Below are positions 23,252 through 58,705 of a stretch of 64,000 bases of DNA, one piece after another. This stretch comes from a virus. The translations under genes were made by a program, and so were the position numbers. Position 1 is the stretch's first letter. The number at the start of each line of letters is the position of its first letter. The notes under the pieces were generated by a model, which saw nothing but the letters and a program-made list of their open reading frames with translations, was not told the DNA's origin and searched no databases. The stretch spans positions 26,275 through 90,274 of IMG/VR virus record IMGVR_UViG_3300007538_000022; one strand, 5' to 3'.

Positions 23252-23281
23252 ATTATACTGTAGTTTTTATTGATTTGTCAA
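23252..23281 (-). promoter_or_regulatory. sigma70-type early promoter for uvsE
   Basis: TTGACA-18-TATAAT. Confidence 0.75.
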
Positions 23282-25834: not shown

Positions 25835-27166
25835 TTAAATAGTAATGTTAAGTGCGTCTTTAAGTAAAATTTCTTCAAAAGTAAATGTTCCATATTCTAT
25901 AATTTTAGAGTGCAAATCTGCAGATTTAGCATTCAACTTAGCAATTTCTTCCTCAGTTAACGACTTCATTGGGAGAGATAAGAATTTTTGAATATACGGT
26001 GTTAACAGTTGATTATATTTTTCTGCTTGTAAAATAACATCTTGCTCTTTTTTATTGCGTAGCTCAATTTTACCATTAACTACTCCTGATATAAAAATAG
26101 ACTTTGCTGTAATATAATCTAAATCAACTTGCATTTGTTGTAGTACATGTTGCTTTCTTAAATTATTAAATTCAATCCGTTTTTCATACCATGCATTTAA
26201 TAACTCATCAATTGAATTAAATATAATTATTTTATTATCTTCATCTATACAAGTAAAGTTTTCTGTTATTTTTTTTACTAATTTAAGTTTATTAAGAATC
26301 CACTCATCGTCTCGTTCGCTAAACTGTCTATCTACTAGAATTTCAAATAAAAATTCGTCGTTATCTGACAAGTCGTCGTAATCTTTAATGTCTTTATCAT
26401 CAACTAATTTATCCAAAACTGCTTGATATTGTTTTAATGTATATCCAATTGGAAGGGCATCAATTACTAATCTGTGTTTTAACTTTCGATAAAAATTTCC
26501 TTTAATAATCCATTGTGTATCTAACTCTCCTGATTCAACAGTACACTTCATTCCATTCCAATGTGGTGTTAAATTAACTTTAGGTTTTCTAATTTTTGTT
26601 CGTTGCTTAACCCACTTTAAGATTTGTTTTGGATCTCTTGGCAGAATTTTCTGTGCAAATCCAATTGACACACCTTCCGATCCATTAATTGCAATTAATG
26701 GTAATACAGGAACGTAGAATCTAGGTTCAATAGATTCATTTTCAAATAATTGATGATTTAATATTTCATAATCGTCTTTAATAAATATTGATTTAAGAAT
26801 GGGATTCATTCTTGCAAAAATGTAACGTGTAGCTGAAGCATCTGGAATAAACGTACTACCAAAATTACCATCGCCTTCTAATAAAGGTAAATTATTACCC
26901 GAACCTACGTAATCCGCAGTCATATTTACAATAGTACTTTCCAGAGAACCATGCAAGTATTGTGCATAGTCTTGAACTTTAGGACCTAAATTTGATACTT
27001 TTACAAATTTATCAATATTTTGTCTAATAACAGTGTGAAGTATTTTACGAGAAGCATTTTTTTGCCCATCAATATAACTTCCTAATTTACGAACATTATC
27101 ATAAACTGAAAATGAAATATATTCATCTTTGAAAAAGTCTTCCAATGGTAATGTATGTGTATTCAT
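25835..27166 (-). CDS. Type IIA DNA topoisomerase, GyrA/ParC-like subunit (T4 gp52-like)
   Basis: IDGQKNASRKIL, YLHG, GNFGS, ASATRYIF (catalytic Tyr), EPRFYVPVLP. Confidence 0.92.
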   Translation of the reverse strand: MNTHTLPLEDFFKDEYISFSVYDNVRKLGSYIDGQKNASRKILHTVIRQNIDKFVKVSNLGPKVQDYAQYLHGSLESTIVNMTADYVGSGNNLPLLEGDGNFGSTFIPDASATRYIFARMNPILKSIFIKDDYEILNHQLFENESIEPRFYVPVLPLIAINGSEGVSIGFAQKILPRDPKQILKWVKQRTKIRKPKVNLTPHWNGMKCTVESGELDTQWIIKGNFYRKLKHRLVIDALPIGYTLKQYQAVLDKLVDDKDIKDYDDLSDNDEFLFEILVDRQFSERDDEWILNKLKLVKKITENFTCIDEDNKIIIFNSIDELLNAWYEKRIEFNNLRKQHVLQQMQVDLDYITAKSIFISGVVNGKIELRNKKEQDVILQAEKYNQLLTPYIQKFLSLPMKSLTEEEIAKLNAKSADLHSKIIEYGTFTFEEILLKDALNITI

Positions 27167-29394: not shown

Positions 29395-29423
29395 ATTATA
29401 TAGCATTTTTTTACTTCTGTCAA
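29395..29423 (-). promoter_or_regulatory. sigma70-type early promoter
   Basis: Perfect TTGACA-17-TATAAT. Confidence 0.85.
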
Positions 29424-30563: not shown

Positions 30564-31277
30564 TTATTCCCAGTATTTTCTATTATCTAAATTAGTCCAG
30601 TACGTTTCATTATTGCGATTTATGAAATTTTTAATAAGATATATAGTCATTCCAAGATATCCCATTTTCTTAAATCGTCTGCTATCCTGTCCAAAATAGT
30701 GGTTGAGAATTTTGAATTTCTTAGGATTATACATTCTTGATAGAAAAAAATCTTCACTAGTAGAATATTTTGCAGGAAAGCCGCCTAAGTTATCAAAGAT
30801 TGTTTTTCTAGTAAGCATAAACGCTCCTACAGCAAATGGGACTTTATATTTCATAATATTATTAATAACATTGAAAATTTTAAATCCTATAATAGTTCTA
30901 AAATCATTATCATAACATTTAATGTTTAATCCGACTAAATCTAAATTTTTAGTTTCTAGTGCTTGTACTGCATCGTATATTGTATTAGAGTTAAAGAAAA
31001 TAACATCAGCATCTATAAAAAGTATATAAGGAGTTTTAACTAATGCTGCACCATTATTCTTAGCAATTGATACAGGACCACCTTGAATTACTTCAACCCG
31101 TAAATCACCTTTATATTTTTTAATTATTTCTCTAGTATTATCCGTCGAAGCATCGGCAATAATAATACGAACTCCTTCTATTTCTTTTTGTTTTTTTAAA
31201 CTATTTAAAAGATTGTGAATATAATCTCTTTCATTTTTACACGGTACAACAATTGTTATTTTATTTGCTAGAGTCAT
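30564..31277 (-). CDS. Family 2 glycosyltransferase
   Basis: IVVPCKNE, ADASTD, AKNNGA, LFIDAD, GGF, SEDF; likely start MTLANK. Confidence 0.88.
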   Translation of the reverse strand: MTLANKITIVVPCKNERDYIHNLLNSLKKQKEIEGVRIIIADASTDNTREIIKKYKGDLRVEVIQGGPVSIAKNNGAALVKTPYILFIDADVIFFNSNTIYDAVQALETKNLDLVGLNIKCYDNDFRTIIGFKIFNVINNIMKYKVPFAVGAFMLTRKTIFDNLGGFPAKYSTSEDFFLSRMYNPKKFKILNHYFGQDSRRFKKMGYLGMTIYLIKNFINRNNETYWTNLDNRKYWE

Positions 31278-32004
31278 AGTAAATTTCCCAAGTGCCATCT
31301 GTATGTTCAAGTAAGGCTGTGGCACTTTCAACCCAATCTCCGTCGTTCATATATAATACACCATTAATTTTTTTAATTTCTGCATGATGTATATGTCCAC
31401 AAATTATTCCATTATAATTGTTCTCAATGCAATAATCTGCAATATAATTTTCATACTTATTGATAAAATTAACAGCTTGCTTAGTATTATCTTTAAGCCA
31501 TTTGCTTAAACTCCAATACTTTAATCCTAAAAGTTTTCTAATCGAATTAAAATGAATATTCACCCATATTAGTAATTCATACAACGTATCGCCTAAGTGC
31601 ATCATCCACTTATACTTATCTATCATTAATTTATCAAATATATCTCCATGAACTACAAGGTATCTTTTATTATCAACACCTGTATAGTCGTAGCTGTTTA
31701 TAATTTGAATACTTCCTATGTTAATGTCGTAGTTTAAAAATTTACGAATTCCCTCGTCATGATTTCCGATAATATAATAAACATTAGTACCTTTTTTTGC
31801 TAATGTTAATATACGTCGAATAACATTAGCATGCGATTGTGGAAAGAACCATTTTTTTCGTAATTTCCACCCGTCAATTATATCACCTACTAGAAATAAA
31901 TTATCAGATGTATTATTTTTCAAAAAAAGACACAAAGCATCAGCTTGACAACCCCGTGTTCCTAAATGAACATCTGAAATAAAAATACTTTTATAATGTT
32001 TCAT
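31261..32004 (-). CDS. UDP-2,3-diacylglucosamine diphosphatase-like (LpxH family) metallophosphoesterase
   Basis: ISDVHLG, VGDIIDGW, GNHD, HGD, CGHIH, NDGDWVES. Confidence 0.85.
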   Translation of the reverse strand: MKHYKSIFISDVHLGTRGCQADALCLFLKNNTSDNLFLVGDIIDGWKLRKKWFFPQSHANVIRRILTLAKKGTNVYYIIGNHDEGIRKFLNYDINIGSIQIINSYDYTGVDNKRYLVVHGDIFDKLMIDKYKWMMHLGDTLYELLIWVNIHFNSIRKLLGLKYWSLSKWLKDNTKQAVNFINKYENYIADYCIENNYNGIICGHIHHAEIKKINGVLYMNDGDWVESATALLEHTDGTWEIYYDSSK

Positions 32005-32012
32005 AATTATTT

Positions 32013-33314
32013 TTAAATCTTTTCGCCTATTTCAAAACCTCTAAATGTTTTAAATCTTGGAAATCGTAGCGAGTATGTACTATCTTGATTTTGAGTTATT
32101 GCATCTGCACGAACTTCCACCATATGCCCTATAACATTAGTGTTCCATATATCATTTCTCTGTTCATCTGTAAATCCAGATCCAACATTAACTTTAATGA
32201 TTTTCCCGCTATCAATCCCTTCACATACTAACGCCCCTAATCTTCCTATATTTTTACCTGTTCCTTCCTCAACAGAAATAACATTTAATGTAACTTCGAT
32301 AAATGGTTTTATTTTTAGCCACGAATGTGTTCTTTTACATTCATACGGTGCATCAGGATCTTTTACCATAATACCTTCGTATCCTAACTCGATTGCTGAT
32401 TGATTAATTTCTTTAAATCTATCACTTCCATTAGGTGTATCTAAATCTACTTCTTCATTTCCAACTATTCGAATAATTTCATCATTAAACAATTTTGATA
32501 ATCTCGATAAGTTAGTTGACCTATCTTTTTGAGGAACTAATGACTTTCCATTTTTAAAATCTTTCAAACTAATTACATCAAACAGATATAGTACTGCATC
32601 ATTTGTTTGAACATTTGTTTTTCGATGTACTTGTTTCATTAGATCTTGAAAGGTTGAACTCATCACTTCTCCATCAAACACAGTGTCTTCTGTTAGCTGT
32701 GAAGAAATATGATTTTTAAACCATTTTGCTATTCTAGGAAAGTTTTGTAATTCTTTACCATTTCGGCTATACATTGTTACAATGCCGTTTGTCCTGACAA
32801 CAGTTATAACCCTAACGCCATCTAATTTAACTTCGATTAGTTTATTGCCACTTAGTTTTTTTTCGTGATTAGCACCGTCATGTGCTAATTGACATGAAAA
32901 TACAGGTATTGAATATTTTGGGTACGTTTTAGTTACTTTATTAACTGTTTTTACACTAACTCCACATTTTAAATCTTTAGTTAAAATGCGTCTGTACCAC
33001 ATATTCCATTCTACTGTAGTTGCAACATCCATGCACAATTTAATTGCATCACGAGCAGCATATCCTGTTAATTCTCTATTATTTAACTTGTTTGCTAAAT
33101 CTTCAAATACATTCCATGCTAATCCCTGCCCATTAACTGTTGACTCTGGTACTTGTTTGATCCCAAACGTGAATAATGGATCCAAGCACATTTTTAAACC
33201 TGAAAAAAATGTATCCACATTCTCATTCATTGCAAGTGTTAAAATAGATTCTTTTGCAAGTCTAGAATTATTTGATTCTAAATTTTTAATTATTTCGTGT
33301 GGCAAAGTATGCAT
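32013..33314 (-). CDS. ATP-dependent DNA ligase
   Basis: EVKLDGVR, DGE, FD, EGIMVK, WLKIKP, SLRFPRF. Confidence 0.93.
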   Translation of the reverse strand: MHTLPHEIIKNLESNNSRLAKESILTLAMNENVDTFFSGLKMCLDPLFTFGIKQVPESTVNGQGLAWNVFEDLANKLNNRELTGYAARDAIKLCMDVATTVEWNMWYRRILTKDLKCGVSVKTVNKVTKTYPKYSIPVFSCQLAHDGANHEKKLSGNKLIEVKLDGVRVITVVRTNGIVTMYSRNGKELQNFPRIAKWFKNHISSQLTEDTVFDGEVMSSTFQDLMKQVHRKTNVQTNDAVLYLFDVISLKDFKNGKSLVPQKDRSTNLSRLSKLFNDEIIRIVGNEEVDLDTPNGSDRFKEINQSAIELGYEGIMVKDPDAPYECKRTHSWLKIKPFIEVTLNVISVEEGTGKNIGRLGALVCEGIDSGKIIKVNVGSGFTDEQRNDIWNTNVIGHMVEVRADAITQNQDSTYSLRFPRFKTFRGFEIGEKI

Positions 33315-33497
33315 AGTAGCGATCCTATAAATAGTAGTGTGATGTATGTAAGGCTATAGTTAATTGATATTTAATTCTTGTTGTAGTGATTCGATTCGTT
33401 CAGCGGCAAGAATTAATAGCATCGACAACGATTCGTTGTTTGAATAATTAACTGACATTATTAAAAGTGTATTTACAAGTTCGGTATTTGTCATATT

Positions 33498-33809
33498 ATG
33501 AAAGAAATTAAAGAATTATATAATCATTTAAAAAATTCAGCAAAAAAAAGAAATATTCCATTTTCGCTAACATTAACAGATCTAAATAACTTATCATTTC
33601 CGTTAACGTGTCCAGTGTTAGGTATAAAATTACAATGGAATACTGGAAATCCAAAAGATAATTCGTATTCCATTGATCGAATTGATTCTACTAAAGGGTA
33701 TGAAATTGACAATATTATTGTCATTAGCTATAGAGCTAACAAATTAAAAAATAATGCAACATTAAATGAATTAAATCTAATAGCTGGATTTTACAACTCT
33801 TTAATGTGA
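33498..33809 (+). CDS. HNH-like endonuclease domain protein
   Basis: CPVLG...SIDRIDSTKGY..DN...S..AN.LKN; plus-strand TATAAATA at 33326. Confidence 0.7.
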   Translation: MKEIKELYNHLKNSAKKRNIPFSLTLTDLNNLSFPLTCPVLGIKLQWNTGNPKDNSYSIDRIDSTKGYEIDNIIVISYRANKLKNNATLNELNLIAGFYNSLM

Positions 33810-33970
33810 TTATTAATGTAATTTATCCAATGCCCTTTAACATCAACAAAATCGTGTGGATTGTAAAAAAATCGAGTATATTTAACATTTGATTCTTCTT
33901 CAACCCACTCTTTAATAGCAAATACTTGGTTAATGTTTATTAAATATTGGCTAATATGTACAAAGTTCAC
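33791..33970 (-). CDS. Small hypothetical protein (59 aa, GTG start, not in the track)
   Basis: Own translation MNFVHISQYLININQVFAIKEW...NHIKEL. Confidence 0.45.
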   Translation of the reverse strand: MNFVHISQYLININQVFAIKEWVEEESNVKYTRFFYNPHDFVDVKGHWINYINNHIKEL

Positions 33971-34204
33971 GCACGTGTTGCCTGTCTTTTACGAAGTTCT
34001 TTATTAATTTTAACTTGATCCTTTTTTCTACCTTTAAAGTTAAGAAGTTTTTCAGTTGACATACCTTCTACTGAAACTTTTGAACCTTTAGAACCTATTT
34101 TCATCATATTTCTCCAATTAAAATTTTTGAATTGTTACAATTCTACCAATAATGAACCCTAATATAAAAGAAATTAGCATCCACCCTATAAATAATTCCA
34201 TTGT

Positions 34205-34498
34205 TTAATGCCCGTAGTTAAACCCGTATAAATATGATTTTCCACTTTTACATCTCATTTGACTGTCAAAAAACCCACAGCAACCTTCATTTTTTATTTT
34301 TGTGTATTGTTTATGTCCATTATATGTATTAGGAAAAATCCTAAAATTATCTTCATATTCAGTATCTAGCATTGCTATAGATAATGCAACTAAAATTTCT
34401 AAACGATCTTCCATAGGAATTTCTTGCATCATTTCATCATCTAACAAATACCCTATTTTATCTATCGCATACTTTTCATAAGAATCTGTAGTATTCAT
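34205..34498 (-). CDS. Hypothetical protein
   Basis: ORF directly after a sigma70 promoter; GCCGFFD...GFNYGH. Confidence 0.7.
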   Translation of the reverse strand: MNTTDSYEKYAIDKIGYLLDDEMMQEIPMEDRLEILVALSIAMLDTEYEDNFRIFPNTYNGHKQYTKIKNEGCCGFFDSQMRCKSGKSYLYGFNYGH

Positions 34499-34529
34499 AC
34501 AGTTATTTTTTTATTTTGTTAAAAACTAT

Positions 34530-34558
34530 ATTATACATGTTTGTTAATATTATGTCAA
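34530..34558 (-). promoter_or_regulatory. sigma70-type early promoter
   Basis: Perfect TTGACA-17-TATAAT. Confidence 0.85.
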
Positions 34559-34611
34559 CTGTTTTTAAAAAATATCGTTTATGTGTTAGTAAATGTAAAT
34601 TTGATCGAGTA

Positions 34612-34845
34612 TTATTCGTTATCATCTAATAACTTTCCAGTATTACAATAATATATAAATTTAACCCATTTAATATCATCATTTAACTTGTTAATATCCA
34701 TATCGTAGGAGCTTATAACTGTTGCATATCGCATTTCGCTATGTCGATTTTCTCTAATCATTAATTCTAAATCGTTTAATCTACGAGATTTAATTCGTTG
34801 TTTCAGTTTAATTTTTTCTTTTAGTGCTCTAATTGTTTGTTTCAT
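34612..34845 (-). CDS. Hypothetical protein
   Basis: Likely start MKQTIR, which avoids overlap with the upstream gene. Confidence 0.55.
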   Translation of the reverse strand: MKQTIRALKEKIKLKQRIKSRRLNDLELMIRENRHSEMRYATVISSYDMDINKLNDDIKWVKFIYYCNTGKLLDDNE

Positions 34846-34867
34846 TGTGTCTCTATTGTTAAGTAGT

Positions 34868-35500
34868 TTAAGTCCATAGGGAATGATAATATTTACCAAA
34901 TAATCTAAGACCATTATTAATTCGTTCATGATACTTATCTAGATTCTCCTTATCAATTTCAAAGTTAAAAGGTTTGTCCGGTGTACTAGGTAGTTCTTTA
35001 AAAAACTCATCTTCTCCATCGATTAATTTTTGCTGAAATGCCCAAATCATTTCATCTATGATCCAATCCCACCTTAAAAACCAGTTGTCGTCAACATCGT
35101 CAAATTGTTGATTTTCATTTTTATTCCGTAAGTTATCTGGAACATCATCATTATCAACAAATGGAGCTCCATGTTTTTCCTTTTTTAGTTCAATAAGTAA
35201 CGGTACAATGATATGCGCCAAAGTTACATCAGCAGACCATGTATCATACTTATCTATTTTTACTTTTACTTTTTGTTTCTTTTTAGAATGTATCCACTCT
35301 AAAAAGTTATACAATATTGTTTGATTACTTTCAATCCGTTCTTTAAATCCATAAGCAAGCCAGTCACCGAACTTATGAACACAATCTGCTGAACATTTAA
35401 TACCATACTCGTCAGTTTGTTTAGGATACCACCACATTAACATTTCTGCTAATTGATACGGACCTATCCAAGTTATATATGGGCCTACATACACTTTCAT
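34868..35500 (-). CDS. Hypothetical phage protein
   Basis: Trp-rich ORF (KIDKYDTWS.D.TLA...GLRLFGKYY.SLW) in a coupled operon. Confidence 0.7.
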   Translation of the reverse strand: MKVYVGPYITWIGPYQLAEMLMWWYPKQTDEYGIKCSADCVHKFGDWLAYGFKERIESNQTILYNFLEWIHSKKKQKVKVKIDKYDTWSADVTLAHIIVPLLIELKKEKHGAPFVDNDDVPDNLRNKNENQQFDDVDDNWFLRWDWIIDEMIWAFQQKLIDGEDEFFKELPSTPDKPFNFEIDKENLDKYHERINNGLRLFGKYYHSLWT

Positions 35501-35814
35501 TATTTTTCCTCTAAAAAGTCAAGAGCATCTTTAACTGCAGATATCCAATTTAATGCTGTTTGTTTAGATAATATAATTTCATGATCGATAGTGTTTGAAC
35601 CACTAAACAAGAATTTAAGTTTTTCAAAAAATGTAAACTGTTTTTGAACATAAAAACTTACTTCCACACACTGCAAATCTTTTTCAGCATTAACTTCAAC
35701 CCATGTATTTATTGAATGCTCGTGTGACATGCAATCACATTGTACTGTAAAACAAATTGCATTATCGTATTCAGCAGAAGTTGATATTCCAACCGTAGGT
35801 TTTTCTCTTTTCAT
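35500..35814 (-). CDS. Hypothetical protein
   Basis: CDC...H motif; coupled to the downstream gene. Confidence 0.65.
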   Translation of the reverse strand: MKREKPTVGISTSAEYDNAICFTVQCDCMSHEHSINTWVEVNAEKDLQCVEVSFYVQKQFTFFEKLKFLFSGSNTIDHEIILSKQTALNWISAVKDALDFLEEK

Positions 35815-35938
35815 AGCTATTTATTTTTTTTAAACTGTGGAAATAATGAAATTAAAACAATCGGTACTATTTTGAAAACGTATAGTATTTTAATTTCAAT
35901 CCAGATAGTATTAGATTTACGCACAATAACAACTAATG

Positions 35939-36712
35939 CTAAATTTCAAGTACTTTAGTAAAATAACTAGTATCTTTAAGCTCACCGGGATATCCTTTGG
36001 GATTACTTTCAATTTGAGTATTTCCAATTTCATAACTCACTGATTCATGTATATGTCCGTGAATCCATAACTTTGGGTTATACTGTAATATATGTTCGGA
36101 CAAATCTGAACAATAACCGTGATTAATTGATGAATTTTTAAATTTTTCTGCAATTGATTTAAAACTAGGAGCATGATGTGTAATTACAATATTAGTATGC
36201 TCAGTTGAGTACGATTTTTTAAAAAACTCAATAGTTTTATTAAATTCAACAAATGCATCTTTAGGATCAAATTTTCTCATATATGGCACTCCATATGATC
36301 CTGTTCTAATACAGTGAAAATCATTCATTCGTTTTCTAACTATAAACGCAGTTAATTCATCATAGTTATTATAGTCCGACCACATAGTACTACCTAAAAA
36401 TCGGTAGTTTTCAATGTCAATGTAAGATCGATTAAGTACAGTTAAATTAGGATAGCTCAATTGACTAATATAATCATTAACTAGTTTAACTGAACCTTTA
36501 TAAAATTCATGATTACCAAATACATATAAAACATGTTTAAATCGTGTAGTTACATCATTAAAAAAATATTCAAACTTTTTAATTTTGGATAAAATGCAAA
36601 TATCTCCTGCTAGAATTAGTATAGTATTTTGTTCATCTTCTGAACTGTCTAAACAAAATGGTTCTTTATCATACCATTCTAAATGTAAATCTGATTCTAT
36701 TCTTACTTTCAT
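35939..36712 (-). CDS. Calcineurin-like metallophosphoesterase
   Basis: SDLHLE, LAGD, GNHEFY, THHAP, HGHIH, NPKGY. Confidence 0.9.
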   Translation of the reverse strand: MKVRIESDLHLEWYDKEPFCLDSSEDEQNTILILAGDICILSKIKKFEYFFNDVTTRFKHVLYVFGNHEFYKGSVKLVNDYISQLSYPNLTVLNRSYIDIENYRFLGSTMWSDYNNYDELTAFIVRKRMNDFHCIRTGSYGVPYMRKFDPKDAFVEFNKTIEFFKKSYSTEHTNIVITHHAPSFKSIAEKFKNSSINHGYCSDLSEHILQYNPKLWIHGHIHESVSYEIGNTQIESNPKGYPGELKDTSYFTKVLEI

Positions 36713-53477: not shown

Positions 53478-53702
53478 TTAAAGTTGAAATTTTAATAATT
53501 CATTAAGACCGCCAATGTGCATATCATCGACGAAAATTTGAGGAACAGATCTTGCACTTGGAACAGCACTTAATAAATCCTCTTTAGACCATCCATTGCC
53601 TATTTTTCTAATTTCAAATTCTAAGTTTTTAGAATTTAAAAATGAAACTGCTTGCTCGCATTGCGGGCATTGATCTTTACTCCATACAATTATATTATGC
53701 AT
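53478..53702 (-). CDS. Glutaredoxin (NrdC/NrdH-like)
   Basis: CPQC, RSVPQIF, IGG. Confidence 0.93.
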   Translation of the reverse strand: MHNIIVWSKDQCPQCEQAVSFLNSKNLEFEIRKIGNGWSKEDLLSAVPSARSVPQIFVDDMHIGGLNELLKFQL

Positions 53703-53727: not shown

Positions 53728-54831
53728 TTATAGTTTGTAATTTGAAAAATTATTTATATTTAAGTCATGTTTAATACCGCCTACTATATAACTTTCAATT
53801 TCTGTCTCTTGAGGAGCATTTTGTAAAGTTGAACTAGACAACCAGTGTGTAGTCCACGGTAACGGGTTGTTATTAATCGGTGCATCAAACATTGGATTAT
53901 ATCCAATAGATTTAAGTCTTCGATTTGCAATATATTTACTGTACTGGTGTAACAATGTGCTGTTTAGACCTATAATCGAACCATCTTTAAATAAGTAATC
54001 AGCCCATGCCATTTCTTCAGCAATACAAGTTTCCCACATTTGATAAACTTCATCTTCGCACTCTTTAATAATGCTAACCATTTCAGGATCGTCTTTTCCC
54101 TGAGCCCATAATTTAATTATATGTGTAGAAATAGCTAAATGTTGTGCTTCATCTCTTGCAATTAAACTAATAATTTTAGCCGAACCTTCGACTAGTTTTA
54201 ATTCACCAAATGCAAATGAACACGCAAATGATACATAAAATCTTAATCCTTCTAAGATATTAACATTCATCATTGCAAGAAATAGTTTTTTCTTAACTTC
54301 CCGTAATGTTCCAGATTTGTTATAGATAAAATTATTAGCAGCATCTATGAATGAATCGTAATTCTTAGTTACACTTGATGCACGTTTAATAATCTCTTCG
54401 TCATTTAAAATAGTATCAAAAATTTCACTAGGATCAGGGTAAATATTTTTTATAATATGAGTGTATGATCTAGAATGAATTGTTTCAAAAAAGTCCCAAG
54501 TAACAACAGCACCTTCTAATTCAGGTAAACTGATAAATGGTAAAAATGCAGTACATGGACCTCTACCTTGTACAGAATCTAATAAGATTTGATACTTCAA
54601 GTTACTAGTGAAAATATGCTTTTGTTCAGGTCTAAATTCAGCATAATCTGCTCGATCTTTTTGGAGACTAACTTCCTCAGGCCTCCAAAAGTATCCTAAC
54701 ATTGTTTGATTTAATTTGTCAAATACGGGAAATCTAAAAACATCATATCTTTGTGTATTTTGATCCTCACCAAAAAACATATATTCTTTAGTAAAATCTA
54801 TGTTTTTATTATTGAAAATAGTTTTAGCCAT
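53728..54831 (-). CDS. nrdB: Class Ia ribonucleotide reductase beta subunit
   Basis: FWRPEEV, LLDSVQGR, ETIHSRSY, LEGLRFYVSF, RDEAQH, APQETEIESY. Confidence 0.97.
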   Translation of the reverse strand: MAKTIFNNKNIDFTKEYMFFGEDQNTQRYDVFRFPVFDKLNQTMLGYFWRPEEVSLQKDRADYAEFRPEQKHIFTSNLKYQILLDSVQGRGPCTAFLPFISLPELEGAVVTWDFFETIHSRSYTHIIKNIYPDPSEIFDTILNDEEIIKRASSVTKNYDSFIDAANNFIYNKSGTLREVKKKLFLAMMNVNILEGLRFYVSFACSFAFGELKLVEGSAKIISLIARDEAQHLAISTHIIKLWAQGKDDPEMVSIIKECEDEVYQMWETCIAEEMAWADYLFKDGSIIGLNSTLLHQYSKYIANRRLKSIGYNPMFDAPINNNPLPWTTHWLSSSTLQNAPQETEIESYIVGGIKHDLNINNFSNYKL

Positions 54832-54841
54832 TTATAATTCC

Positions 54842-55357
54842 TTACAGTTTACATGCGCTACATTCTTCATCTGAATCAGTAGCAGAATCGTCAATTTCAC
54901 TTGGGTCAGTTTTATAATCGTATGTATTTGAATAATAAACTGTTTTTAATCCATACTTATATGATTGTAGTAAATCTTCAGTTAACACGCTCATTGGAAT
55001 TTCATTGTTAGAATACTGAGTTGGATTATAACTCCAGTTAGTTGAAATAGATTGATCAAAAAACTTTTGCATAACTGCCATTATATTTAAATATCCTTTA
55101 TTTGAAGGCATATCCCACAGTAAAGTATAATGGTTTTTAAGTGTTTGATATTGAGGTACAATTTGCTTTAGTGGTCCTTTTTTTGATTTTTTAACAGATA
55201 AAAACCCTCTAGGAGGTTCTACACCGTTAGTTGCATTAGACACAACTGAGCTGTTATGCGAGATTAAATTCTCAACAACGTAATGATGAACATCAGGAAC
55301 TTCGATGTCATACGTTGGTAACACTTCATTTAAAAACTCTACTTTTTTAACTTTCAT
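54842..55357 (-). CDS. nrdA: NrdA fragment 4: split-intein-2 IntC (35 aa) plus C-terminal extein
   Basis: ...TYDIEVPDVHHYVVENLISHN|SSVVSNATNGVEPPRG; DQSISTN; KTVYY; C-terminal CSAC. Confidence 0.95.
   Translation of the reverse strand: MKVKKVEFLNEVLPTYDIEVPDVHHYVVENLISHNSSVVSNATNGVEPPRGFLSVKKSKKGPLKQIVPQYQTLKNHYTLLWDMPSNKGYLNIMAVMQKFFDQSISTNWSYNPTQYSNNEIPMSVLTEDLLQSYKYGLKTVYYSNTYDYKTDPSEIDDSATDSDEECSACKL
55253..55357 (-). mobile_element. Split intein 2, C-fragment (Ser+1)
   Basis: Blocks F/G: YDIEV..H.Y...SHN/S. Confidence 0.92.
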
Positions 55358-55359
55358 TA

Positions 55360-56307
55360 CTAATCCTTTAAGTTTAATTCAATAATATCATCATTTTCAT
55401 TTAATTCACTTGCATGCTTCCATAATGTTTGGTTATTTTCTGTTCGAACTAAGAATTTATGAGTCGGTGTACATTTAATTACTTTCCCATTATCTAAAGT
55501 AATCGATACAACTTCTTTATGACCGTTGAAATAAATTTTAGTTACTTCTTTATTCCCTTCAAGAGTTGGAACTATTAACGGTTCTTCTAACGTAAACCAT
55601 CCTATAGCATTATTTAATTCAATTCGATACCAACTAATATGATTCATTTCACAAATTTCGTGAAAGTTTAAATACCCTTTATTTGTTAAAATTTTATGTT
55701 CCCAGTTTAAGCACGATTCACTAGGCATTTGTGCAGATAATGTTGAATGACGTAAGCCATGTGTAACGATATCAGCTCTTAAACTTTCCCAATCGTAAGC
55801 AAGAGAATGTGGAACAATTAAGTCAACATCTTTTTTGTAAGTGTCAATTGGTAAGATTCCTTTTGAATATTTTGTACGGTTAAAATACAAACAAGGGCCT
55901 TTTTCTTTAGCTAAGTTGTTACTTGCTTTTAATAAGTAATATTGAAATGCCTCAGATAAATCGTGTACTAATTTCCAAGCCTTTGGATCATCATATTTCA
56001 CATGATGTTTAGCTAAGTAATGTGCTAACCCTACGTATCCGATTCCTAGAGATCTTCGAGCTTTAGTTTCAATTTCAGCCGCTTTAACAGGATATTCCTG
56101 ATAATCTATCAATTCATCTAAAGACCGTACAGTTAACTCGCACAGTTCTTCTAATTGATCTAAATGTTTAATAGATCCTAAATTAATAGCAGATAAAATG
56201 CAAAGAGCAATTGCAGGAGAATCTTTACTTACAATAACGTCTTCTTCAAAATACACATACTCATCGTCGTTATCGCACTCTGTTACAAAACTGTATAATT
56301 CATTCAT
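55360..56307 (-). CDS. nrdA: NrdA fragment 3: acidic head, central extein and split-intein-2 IntN (117 aa)
   Basis: AIALCILSAINLG, RRSLGIG..GLA, GLRHSTLSAQMPSES|CLNWEH...CTPTHKF. Confidence 0.95.
   Translation of the reverse strand: MNELYSFVTECDNDDEYVYFEEDVIVSKDSPAIALCILSAINLGSIKHLDQLEELCELTVRSLDELIDYQEYPVKAAEIETKARRSLGIGYVGLAHYLAKHHVKYDDPKAWKLVHDLSEAFQYYLLKASNNLAKEKGPCLYFNRTKYSKGILPIDTYKKDVDLIVPHSLAYDWESLRADIVTHGLRHSTLSAQMPSESCLNWEHKILTNKGYLNFHEICEMNHISWYRIELNNAIGWFTLEEPLIVPTLEGNKEVTKIYFNGHKEVVSITLDNGKVIKCTPTHKFLVRTENNQTLWKHASELNENDDIIELNLKD
55363..55713 (-). mobile_element. Split intein 2, N-fragment
   Basis: Block A CLNWEHKILT; block B IKCTPTHKFLV. Confidence 0.92.
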
Positions 56308-56318
56308 TATATTTCCTT

Positions 56319-56576
56319 TTAAATAGAACGATCTTGTAAATAATTACCAATCGATTTTTTGTACTCATTGTACTTATCCATATCTGATTTCTTAACTTTT
56401 ACTAATCGTTTTTCAGTAGTGCCGATGTCATCGATGTGTTGCAATGGAGTAGTAGGTAACGTAATTTCTTGGCAATTGTGTACAAGAATGTCATTTGCAT
56501 AAAAATTATGATTATCCTCGACGGTTATATCGTAAACTTCAATAGGGGCATCTAAATATTCTATAATTAAACTCAT
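56319..56576 (-). CDS. nrdA: NrdA fragment 2: split-intein-1 IntC (34 aa), 16-aa extein carrying the radical Cys, and basic tail
   Basis: VYDITVEDNHNFYANDILVHN|CQEITLPTTPLQHIDD followed by a 35-aa non-RNR tail. Confidence 0.95.
   Translation of the reverse strand: MSLIIEYLDAPIEVYDITVEDNHNFYANDILVHNCQEITLPTTPLQHIDDIGTTEKRLVKVKKSDMDKYNEYKKSIGNYLQDRSI
56475..56576 (-). mobile_element. Split intein 1, C-fragment (Cys+1)
   Basis: Blocks F/G: VYDITV..NHNFYAN..LVHN/C. Confidence 0.95.
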
Positions 56577-56587
56577 TGTGTATTTCC

Positions 56588-58228
56588 TTATTCTTGTGAA
56601 AAATTATTTATTATACGTAATTTGTCGGTTTCTGTCAAGTTTTTTGCTAACACATAACCTCTATTTTCAGTATAAACTTTATGCTCTGGTGTACATATAA
56701 TGGATTTACCGGACGTTGAGTCTGTAATTTTCATTACCTTAGCAGAAGTGTTAGTTAACGCACTGTTAGAAATCCGTTTGTATTCAGACTTTTGAGTGTA
56801 TTCGTTAAACGATAGTACATCAATAGTTTCGCCATTATGAAAATGTGTATTAGCTTGTTCTAATGTAATAGCTTGTTCGGTATTATTTACAATAGCATGG
56901 ATAATAGTATCACCGGACAAACACAAGTTACTCATATAAACAGTATCTAAAAATGAACTATGATTATTACAATGATCGGTAAACATTATATACAATCTGC
57001 CAGTTTCAGTTTTTTCTTTAATTAAAGTAGAAAACAGTTCAACAGCAGGAACTACTGATTGTTTAATATTTGAATTTTTTTCATATGCAGAATATAATTT
57101 AGAAAATACATCAGGGTCTCCAAAATACGCTTCGTATAAATCTGGAACGTCATGAGGGGAAAATAAAGTAATATTTCCATTACTGAGAAATCTCTCAATC
57201 ATAGTTTTATTAATTTGAATAGAATAATCTAATTTTCTAACTCGATTATCTTCAGTACCTTTGTTGTTTTTCAAAACTAATATATCTTTAATTTCTTGAT
57301 GCCAAATTGGAAAATGAACAGTTGCACTTCCACCTCTAACACCGTTTTGTGTACAGCATTTAACAGTAGATTCAAATTTCTTTAAAAATGGAATAACGCC
57401 AGTATGTGCAACTTCTCCTCCTCTAACTTTAGAGTTTACTCCTCTAATTCTTCCAGAATTAATACCTATACCTGCACGTAAAGCAGTATACCGACCAATA
57501 GCCATATCACTTGAAAAAATGCTGTTTAACGTATCGTCGCTATCAACTAGCACACAACTAGCATACTGCCGTACAGGAGTCCTAACGCCTGCATTTACAG
57601 GGGTTGGAATATTAATATGAAATAATGATAGTCCGTCGTAATATTTTTTAATATAATGCATACGAGATGCTTTATCGTATTGAGAAAACATAGTAGCAGC
57701 AATCATAATGTACATTATTTGAGGAGTCTCAAAAATTTGTCCAGTTGATCTGTCTTGAACTAAATATTTGTCAACAATTTGTCTTAACCCTGCATATGTA
57801 AAGTTTTCATCGCGATTATAATGGATCATTGATTCTAATTTTTCTATGTCTTCTTTAGAAAACATATCTAAAAATGATTTATCATACACTCCTCGATTAA
57901 CATTAGAAACAATAATATCATACAAAGGAACCGGTCGATATTGTCCGTACACCTGTTTGTTTAAATTATAACTCATTAAACGAGCAGCAGCATATTGATA
58001 ATTAGGAGATTCTAATGATATTAAATCACTAGCAGACCTAATAAGGATTTTTTGTATTTCATGGGTACTCATTTTGTTATAAAATTGTAAATTTGCATTC
58101 ATTTCAATTTGACTAGCACTTACTCCTGCAAGATTTGCACATGCCTCCTCTACTACAAAATGAATCTTTTCAATGTTTAATGGTTCTTCGACCCCATCGC
58201 GTTTAACGATCATAATCTGTTCTGACAT
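56588..58228 (-). CDS. nrdA: NrdA fragment 1: ATP cone, N-terminal extein (435 aa) and split-intein-1 IntN (111 aa)
   Basis: IVKRDG ATP cone, ETPQ, PTPV, ASCVL, QNGVRGG, SNL|CLSGDT...CTPEHK. Confidence 0.96.
   Translation of the reverse strand: MSEQIMIVKRDGVEEPLNIEKIHFVVEEACANLAGVSASQIEMNANLQFYNKMSTHEIQKILIRSASDLISLESPNYQYAAARLMSYNLNKQVYGQYRPVPLYDIIVSNVNRGVYDKSFLDMFSKEDIEKLESMIHYNRDENFTYAGLRQIVDKYLVQDRSTGQIFETPQIMYIMIAATMFSQYDKASRMHYIKKYYDGLSLFHINIPTPVNAGVRTPVRQYASCVLVDSDDTLNSIFSSDMAIGRYTALRAGIGINSGRIRGVNSKVRGGEVAHTGVIPFLKKFESTVKCCTQNGVRGGSATVHFPIWHQEIKDILVLKNNKGTEDNRVRKLDYSIQINKTMIERFLSNGNITLFSPHDVPDLYEAYFGDPDVFSKLYSAYEKNSNIKQSVVPAVELFSTLIKEKTETGRLYIMFTDHCNNHSSFLDTVYMSNLCLSGDTIIHAIVNNTEQAITLEQANTHFHNGETIDVLSFNEYTQKSEYKRISNSALTNTSAKVMKITDSTSGKSIICTPEHKVYTENRGYVLAKNLTETDKLRIINNFSQE
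56591..56923 (-). mobile_element. Split intein 1, N-fragment
   Basis: Block A CLSGDTII; block B IICTPEHKVYTENRGYV. Confidence 0.95.
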
Positions 58229-58273
58229 AATAATTCCTTGTTGAAAAATATTTTAAATATTTAGTGTTTAAAT

Positions 58274-58705
58274 TTAATGATTTATTTTAGTCGACAAGTT
58301 AAACGACTCAGAAACTGACAATGTATTTGGCAATTCTGATACATGTATTGCTTGGTCATTTTCGAACCCTACAACACAATCGTTTATAAAAAGCAAATAA
58401 AAATATTTTGAAGTTGAATGATCATTCATAAACTTTAATGAAAAGACACATTCTTTAAATCGATTAAGTAATGATAATGAGTAATAGATTGCTAATATTT
58501 TGGTAAATTCACAATATGAATTGTAATCTAATAGTTCCCACGCAGATGGCCATGACGATTGATCATATGGGTCAGTTTGCAGTTGACTAAGTGGCGCAGC
58601 ATTGTAAAAGTTAATTGCATCGCGTATTGGATCAGAAGATGTTTCTAATTCCAGTCTAAAATTTCTCCAAATTAATATTCGATCTTCATAAGTAGAATTG
58701 AACAT
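58274..58705 (-). CDS. Hypothetical protein
   Basis: W..FR...DPY..SWPSAWELL...YC. Confidence 0.7.
   Translation of the reverse strand: MFNSTYEDRILIWRNFRLELETSSDPIRDAINFYNAAPLSQLQTDPYDQSSWPSAWELLDYNSYCEFTKILAIYYSLSLLNRFKECVFSLKFMNDHSTSKYFYLLFINDCVVGFENDQAIHVSELPNTLSVSESFNLSTKINH

Follow-up and report, generated by a model that had tools for sequence, protein, structure and literature searches.

How does a phage make a ribonucleotide reductase (RNR) when the gene for its catalytic subunit, nrdA, is divided among four separate open reading frames (ORFs)? The question is raised by a stretch of 64,000 nucleotides (nt), hereafter the window, which spans positions 26,275 to 90,274 of the IMG/VR virus record IMGVR_UViG_3300007538_000022 and is part of a 90 kb record estimated to be 25% complete. 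Its nrdA consists of four minus-strand ORFs of 546, 85, 315 and 171 amino acids (aa) within positions 54842-58228. Using domain and motif searches, alignments, independent metagenome contigs, related loci and structure prediction, we argue that these ORFs very likely encode a working class Ia RNR alpha subunit of an uncultured freshwater T4-like phage, produced from four translationally coupled genes. The assembly steps that we propose for it are drawn from homology to tested systems, canonical motifs and conservation.

Jointly, the four pieces (P1 to P4, in coding order) make up a complete class Ia NrdA. Pfam places the ATP-cone (PF03477), the all-alpha domain (PF00317) and positions 1-212 of the barrel (PF02867) on P1, barrel positions 215-392 on P3 and 393-522 on P4; intein-splicing matches are C-terminal in P1 and P3 and N-terminal in P2 and P4. 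In alignments with E. coli R1, P1 residues 1-438 correspond to 1-441 (E 1e-149) and P3 residues 27-200 to 453-626 (E 2.5e-62); the first intein therefore starts exactly at C439 and the second is inserted between residues 624 and 625 in E. coli numbering. The equivalents of the catalytic residues are distributed over all four products: C225 (SCVLV) and N437 (SNL) on P1, C439 and E441 (CQE) on P2, C462 (AIALC) on P3, and Y730/Y731 (VYYSN) together with the C-terminal Cys pair (CSAC) on P4. Successive pieces are separated by 11, 11 and 2 nt, neighbouring ORFs are out of frame, and AAGGA stands 6-9 nt upstream of the ATG of each piece; in the ORF listing of the window no ORF and no endonuclease gene lies between any two pieces. 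This four-gene arrangement, the presence of two split inteins and one intein-free break without endonuclease genes, and the scatter of the catalytic residues had all been proposed in a first-pass annotation of the window, and are borne out by ORF calls, Pfam, motifs, translations and the E. coli R1 alignments. The splice junctions given there (SNL-CQE and MPSES-SS) and the product lengths likewise hold as sequence, with the exteins adding up to 435 + 51 = 486 aa and 198 + 136 = 334 aa.

Are the breaks real? The source record is a metagenome assembly, and the stops and frame changes might be sequencing or assembly errors in a single contiguous, intein-bearing gene. The stretch is, however, found both in freshwater metagenome runs of 2017 and in an unrelated study of 2023. 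The junctions are bridged, with zero differences and zero indels, by Logan contigs of the 2023 study (X5 records 9, 10 and 11) and of another 2017 sample that belongs to a study of its own (X7 records 18 and 20), and together these contigs cover all three junctions exactly; the exact P2 protein is on record from 7 contigs and the exact P3 protein from 8. Contiguous ORFs, the outcome that the first-pass annotation had set against its own proposal, were not seen in these independent contigs. Moreover, the positions of the breaks are those of the canonical intein split site, a stop, AAGGA and ATG are present there, and the same ORF ends recur in relatives. Error as the source of the breaks is excluded for practical purposes, and we give next to no credence to a single undivided gene.

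The first and third breaks are most likely canonical class-1 split inteins, and their motifs predict trans-splicing. One intein is split directly before the radical Cys (111 + 34 aa), the other at MPSES|S (117 + 35 aa, with Ser at +1), and the fragment sizes of both fit the usual split site. Both N-terminal fragments (IntN) have Cys at position 1 and a block B TxxH (TPEH in intein 1, TPTH in intein 2), and both C-terminal fragments (IntC) have a block F YDI(T/E)V...H and a terminal HN followed by C or S (...VYDITVEDNHNF...VHN|C in intein 1, ...TYDIEVPDVHHY...SHN|S in intein 2). Positions 122/126-155 of the PF14890 profile match the N ends of P2 and P4, and IntN2 matches the same family at 41 bits (cut-off 35.8). 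In comparisons with solved inteins, IntN1 matches the NrdJ-1 split intein (PDB 8UBS; E 2.7e-14) and IntC1 the C ends of gp41-1, DnaB and DnaX (E ~1e-5 to 1e-3), and IntC2 gives a weak end-to-end alignment to the C-terminal ends of the RecA and DnaB mini-inteins (E 0.25-0.55). All four fragments are acidic (net charge -2 for IntN1, -7 for IntC1, -5 for IntN2 and -3 for IntC2), and at the level of net charge the two inteins show no opposite polarity. We regard intein 2 as unrelated to intein 1. The radical Cys occupies the +1 position of intein 1, and the earlier remark that it doubles as the splicing nucleophile holds here as far as the sequence goes; as a distinguishing feature it does not stand, for the position before the thiyl-radical Cys was already known as the commonest intein site of RNRs (PMC2677866).

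Two described systems come close to this arrangement. The fractured NrdA-1 to NrdA-7 genes of Dassa et al (2009; PMC2677866), which are cyanophage-like and stem from ocean metagenomes, also have a split intein directly N-terminal to the thiyl-radical Cys, with the halves on adjacent genes that have their own regulatory elements. In contrast to the window, with two split inteins and no endonuclease gene, each of them has one split intein and a free-standing endonuclease gene between the halves; the nearest endonuclease-free analogue in that work is the single gp41-7 locus. The cultured Klebsiella jumbo phage KP13-7 (OP617745, Alcyoneusvirus) has split inteins at both sites (...SNL|C and ...MPGE|C with ...HN|T) and a middle piece composed of IntC, extein and IntN that was deposited as hypothetical. 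Unlike the window, KP13-7 has ORFs between the intein halves, a GIY-YIG gene and one of 323 aa that bears an HNH-like motif, its C439-C462 loop has neither a break nor tails, and its second site lies one residue earlier. The KP13-7 nrdA as a whole (L001, record 30877-36407) comprises at least four coding pieces, most of them annotated as hypothetical; near residue 294 it is broken once more, with an HNH-like ORF in this place, where about 12 extein residues are unaccounted for; this break may be an intron.

The middle break contains no intein. It lies in the loop between the strand of C439/E441 and that of C462, and it is flanked by a basic tail of 34 aa at the end of P2 (TTEKRLVKVKK...) and an acidic head of 26 aa at the start of P3 (...EYVYFEEDVI), neither of which has a counterpart in the E. 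coli R1 loop. The same loop is split in Aeromonas phage Aeh1, whose nrdA-a/mobE/nrdA-b was described as an RNR with 'genes in pieces' (Friedrich et al, 2007, as cited in PMC3045599) and whose enzyme is an active (alpha-a/alpha-b)2 beta2 made from two polypeptides; its basic NrdA-a tail (isoelectric point (pI) 10.4) and acidic NrdA-b tail (pI 3.8) are both essential for activity (Crona et al, 2011; PMC3045599). Judged by its sequence, the middle break is of the Aeh1 nrdA-a/nrdA-b type, and this homology lends support to the heterodimer that the first-pass annotation had suggested. The two systems have in common the loop, the basic C-terminal tail on the upstream chain, the acidic N-terminal head on the downstream chain, the tail motif EK.L.KVKKS..DK(Y/F) (...KEKMLFKVKKSEVDKFK in Aeh1, ...TEKRLVKVKKSDMDKYN in the window) and, as we read the window, two chains without splicing at the break. 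They differ in that the gap of 11 nt in the window lacks an endonuclease gene whereas that of Aeh1 holds mobE, in that the gap of the window's relatives is occupied by a SegE-like GIY-YIG gene and not by the HNH gene mobE, and in that each chain of the window would first have to be made by trans-splicing.

The relationship between the tails was examined with a profile of 33 environmental tails, from which Aeh1 was left out, searched against 184 six-frame segments of the 7 kb Aeh1 nrdA locus. With E values scaled to 20,000 sequences and the composition correction of HMMER switched off, the profile matched the NrdA-a tail alone (whole-sequence E 0.0027, domain E 0.037; next match E >300). The heads of Aeh1 and the window are similar in composition and have a loose LYE(F/V)...EY pattern in common, without statistical support, and when the acidic head served as query in a word-based protein search, the protein of the window was the sole match. 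Modelling piece 2 (residues 35-85) together with piece 3 (residues 1-198) gave an ipSAE of 0.67 (median of three runs; best control 0.00). This passes a mark that 58 of 80 solved complexes reached, as did 2 of 110 mismatched pairs; because our own alignments were supplied, these counts serve only as a rough guide. At least 62% of the contacts agreed between runs, with a partner pLDDT (predicted local distance difference test) of at least 65. In the predicted interface, tail residues 48-85 pack against head residues 3-30, with T53-K63 of P2 antiparallel to Y17-I25 of P3, so that tail and head are predicted to pair as an intermolecular antiparallel beta-zipper. Since sequence searches of the PDB found no structure of such tails, the result is unlikely to reflect structures already known to the model alone.

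Could the middle break also be repaired, yielding one chain of 820 aa? A cryptic third splicing reaction by tail and head, ribosomal bypassing or frameshifting, or RNA splicing would each achieve this. Crona et al raised a degenerate-intein origin of the Aeh1 tails (PMC3045599), tails similar to the C-terminal half of an IntN occupy the same loop in other phages, and tail, linker and head occur naturally as a fused form. Yet the tail of the window starts with neither Cys nor Ser and lacks TxxH, and in the head both a terminal HN and a nucleophile at the junction are missing. When profiles of the K-rich tails and of the acidic heads are compared to alignments of IntN and IntC, the probability is ~0.1%. 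The gap consists of TAA, a Shine-Dalgarno-like AAGGA and ATG, without matching take-off and landing codons; a length of 11 nt is too short for an intron, and an Rfam scan of 54500-58500 returned no intron and no other RNA family. In addition, the homologous Aeh1 enzyme has been shown to work as two chains (PMC3045599). Repair of this break seems to us very improbable, and we retain two separate chains as the preferred reading. An intein origin of the Aeh1-class tails was considered separately: comparison of the K-rich tails with the intein-N-like tails gave P 0.03 and a probability of 1.7%, and together with the value of ~0.1% above this origin is not supported. The intein-N-like tails themselves, found in the same loop in L099 as well as in P0026, P0029, P0030, P0032 and P0033, form another class. 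They have no block A, and correspond to the second half of an IntN, starting with block B and running to its end (hmmsearch 13.7 bits; hhalign E 9.5e-4, probability 22%).

How did such a layout come about? With a script, we sorted about 290 related loci of IMG/VR and JGI metagenomes; this sample was set by our own queries, is biased accordingly and does not include the window's own record. All three breaks are combined only in the window and in one further locus, L292 (Ga0306897_1000001, 152 kb), which is also the only other case of the four-gene, endonuclease-free layout. Three-piece intermediates are common, and all pairwise combinations of the breaks occur. The triple combination, for which the first-pass annotation knew no parallel, is thus not unique. 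The pieces of L292 are broken at the same places and run from extein 1 with IntN, through IntC with the core and a basic tail, and an acidic head with extein and IntN, to IntC with the last extein. L292 differs from the window in that its exteins are just 46-53% identical, in that pieces 2 and 3 overlap by 11 nt, and in that P1 contains an extra contiguous mini-intein after ...AVKSC, near residue 292 of the window's P1. Its intein 2 sits one residue earlier (MPAE|C...HN|T) and is ~30% identical, and the second inteins of L292 and the window are therefore probably separate alleles.

Each break occurs in graded states among the relatives. Intein 1 may be absent or occur as a contiguous mini-intein; where it is split, the halves either flank an HNH/NUMOD3 or GIY-YIG gene or have no gene between them. 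The loop is unbroken and short in most relatives. In others it is broken by a gap that holds a SegE-like GIY-YIG gene (L003-L010 and L216-L225, and a second lineage, L101-L109), endonuclease remnants (L093, L094) or no gene (L110, L213-L215, L226, L231, L292). In the L063 group, L245, L261 and P0084, tail, linker and head are fused as an insertion of 88-98 residues between the radical Cys and the C462 equivalent; this may be either the ancestral state of the Aeh1-type tails or the outcome of re-fusion after loss of the endonuclease gene. A tblastn search of the phage collection with the L063 loop insertion gave no match. The lineage of the fused P0084 also includes split forms, P0020 and P0022. 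Intein 2 is absent, split with an intervening ORF, or split without one. Middle pieces flanked by both split inteins form at least 12 clusters at 50% identity, and more than 25 distinct piece-2-like proteins were found. With GIY-YIG or HNH genes present in relatives at each of its breaks, the window is best read as having lost all three.

Two observations on intein 2 and its surroundings in relatives may be added. ORFs of 355-433 aa without a Pfam match above threshold lie between IntN2 and IntC2 in L077 (6059-7126), L090 (5407-6483) and L231 (4474-5775), and may represent endonucleases of a family that is undescribed or poorly modelled. Besides a split intein 2, the nrdA of L090 (1598-5342) seems to have its extein 1 interrupted near residue 300, where an ORF of 331 aa separates the parts.

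What would it take for the four ORFs to yield an enzyme? As we envisage it, transcripts would arise upstream and probably, in addition, at a perfect sigma-70 promoter within the 3' end of the IntN1 coding region, and translation of the four ORFs would be coupled. P1 and P2 would associate through intein 1 and trans-splice to SNL-CQE, the thiyl-radical Cys itself acting as the +1 nucleophile, to give alpha-a of 486 aa; P3 and P4 would trans-splice through intein 2 to MPSES-SS, to give alpha-b of 334 aa. These two chains would never be covalently joined, and the ten-stranded barrel would be completed non-covalently, as in NrdA-a/NrdA-b of Aeh1. The tail-head zipper would help alpha-a and alpha-b to assemble, followed by dimerisation and NrdB binding to form the holoenzyme (alpha-a/alpha-b)2 beta2. 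Such an enzyme would depend on two trans-splicing reactions and one non-covalent join, with an active site spread over four translation products. The layout itself would be the final outcome of a series of invasions by homing endonuclease genes, which have since been lost.

Several points weigh against this proposal. Solved structures lend intein 2 little support, and its assignment depends on the motifs and the Pfam match. The homology to the Aeh1 tail amounts to a motif of ~19 residues of biased composition, and the profile match to Aeh1 vanishes when the composition correction of HMMER is on; the head profile, searched against the same 7 kb nrdA locus, has no match to the Aeh1 head. The tails of Aeh1 are dispensable for binding of alpha-a to alpha-b and are needed for dimerisation of the heterodimer (PMC3045599), so the tail-head zipper may not be the whole story. 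Finally, the record of ~90 kb represents an estimated 25% of the genome, and an intact second RNR could lie elsewhere.

This last point also bears on the possibility that the locus is a decaying, non-functional nrdA left by repeated mobile-element invasions, the phage using the RNR of its host or another one of its own. Only about a quarter of the genome is covered, fragmented phage RNR genes of doubtful function are on record, and decay has been suggested for some nrdA genes of Campylobacter phages (PMC3653736). Against decay, all four ORFs are intact in AT-rich DNA, each with AAGGA and ATG, and every catalytic residue and intein motif is kept. The sequence is identical in the 2017 and 2023 samples, the layout is retained in L292 despite the extein divergence given above, and the adjacent nrdB and glutaredoxin gene are intact as well. 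We regard decay as improbable, and the locus as real and probably functional.

A further reading, which we consider rather unlikely, is that the layout is a stable, selected design. Two orthogonal split inteins and a beta-zipper would then provide an ordered, all-or-none assembly in which splicing of intein 1 might be redox-gated: because its +1 nucleophile would be the radical Cys, next to Cys1 of the intein, redox-gated splicing and DNA-precursor supply could follow. Tail and head would be an old, transferable module that travels with different endonucleases (HNH in Aeh1, GIY-YIG here) and can re-fuse into a loop insertion.

Whether as a relic of invasion, as we favour, or as a design, the locus combines three tricks of which each mechanism is known; what is new is the combination and not a principle. 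It would encode the most fragmented natural RNR catalytic subunit found in the searched literature or among the ~290 loci. That literature, in which few subscription journals were covered, yielded no account of a four-gene nrdA, of two natural split inteins in one gene or in nrdA, or of the spread of Aeh1-type tails. The tails of Aeh1 are not a one-off, and appear as a conserved module in several uncultured phage lineages, with a GIY-YIG gene, without an endonuclease or fused, a spread that bears on their origin. The predicted beta-zipper offers a testable model of how the tails act, and two natural split inteins that act within the same protein, if free of cross-reaction as the proposed assembly would require, would be useful for the ligation of proteins from multiple fragments. 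The finding is of interest to the fields of inteins, homing endonucleases and RNRs alike.

The pieces and their parts are listed in Table 1 with the neighbouring features. The glutaredoxin encoded downstream of nrdB is likely the reductant for the C-terminal Cys pair of NrdA. The window has four perfect sigma-70 consensus promoters (TTGACA, 16-18 nt, TATAAT), each of them on the minus strand, while chance predicts 0.19, and none of 100 shuffles reaches four; the one at the end of IntN1 may, from its position, drive a separate early transcript for pieces 2-4 and nrdB. No terminator-like site was found on the coding strand within the nrdA operon, and the late promoter motif TATAAATA was not found in the nrdA region.

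Table 1. Positions of the nrdA pieces, their parts and neighbouring features in the window, and of selected nrdA loci in relatives (prefixed by locus).
Feature	Position	Strand	Length	Remarks
Piece 1 (P1)	58228..56588	-	546 aa	
Extein 1	P1 aa 1-435, nt 56924-58228	-		ATP-cone, all-alpha domain, first barrel half; end ...MSNL
IntN1	P1 aa 436-546, nt 56591-56923	-		start CLSGDT, block B TPEH; match to NrdJ-1
Piece 2 (P2)	56576..56319	-	85 aa	
IntC1	P2 aa 1-34, nt 56475-56576	-		end VHN
Extein 2 core	P2 aa 35-51	-		CQEITLP..., bears radical Cys and Glu
Basic tail	P2 aa 52-85, nt 56322-56423	-		net charge +4, pI 9.6
Piece 3 (P3)	56307..55360	-	315 aa	
Acidic head	P3 aa 1-26, nt 56230-56307	-		net charge -9, pI 4.1
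Extein 3	P3 aa 27-198	-		from AIALC (C462 equivalent) to MPSES
IntN2	P3 aa 199-315, nt 55363-55713	-		start CLNWEH, block B TPTH
Piece 4 (P4)	55357..54842	-	171 aa	
IntC2	P4 aa 1-35, nt 55253-55357	-		end SHN
Extein 4	P4 aa 36-171	-		SSVVSNATNG..., YY pair, C-terminal CSAC
nrdB, small subunit	53728..54831	-	367 aa	PF00268, E 1e-46; start 11 nt downstream of piece 4
Glutaredoxin	53478..53702	-	74 aa	CPQC; PF00462, E 4.8e-12; downstream of nrdB
Sigma-70 consensus promoter, perfect	56610..56638	-		TTGACA, 17 nt, TATAAT; inside IntN1 coding 3' end, 34 nt upstream of P2 ATG
Other perfect sigma-70 promoters	23252-23281, 29395-29423, 34530-34558	-		
Fused tail-linker-head loci	L063:5103-5360; L261:5998-7308			
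L292 four-gene nrdA	L292:3756-7908			three inteins and tail break in one gene

Directly upstream of nrdA, the window contains an ORF without a Pfam family (58274-58705, minus strand). ORFs that look similar by eye in the ORF listings stand at the same place in divergent relatives (L003:1956-2381, L215:2956-3381 and L292:3365-3790), and the ORFs of this group are 141-143 aa long.

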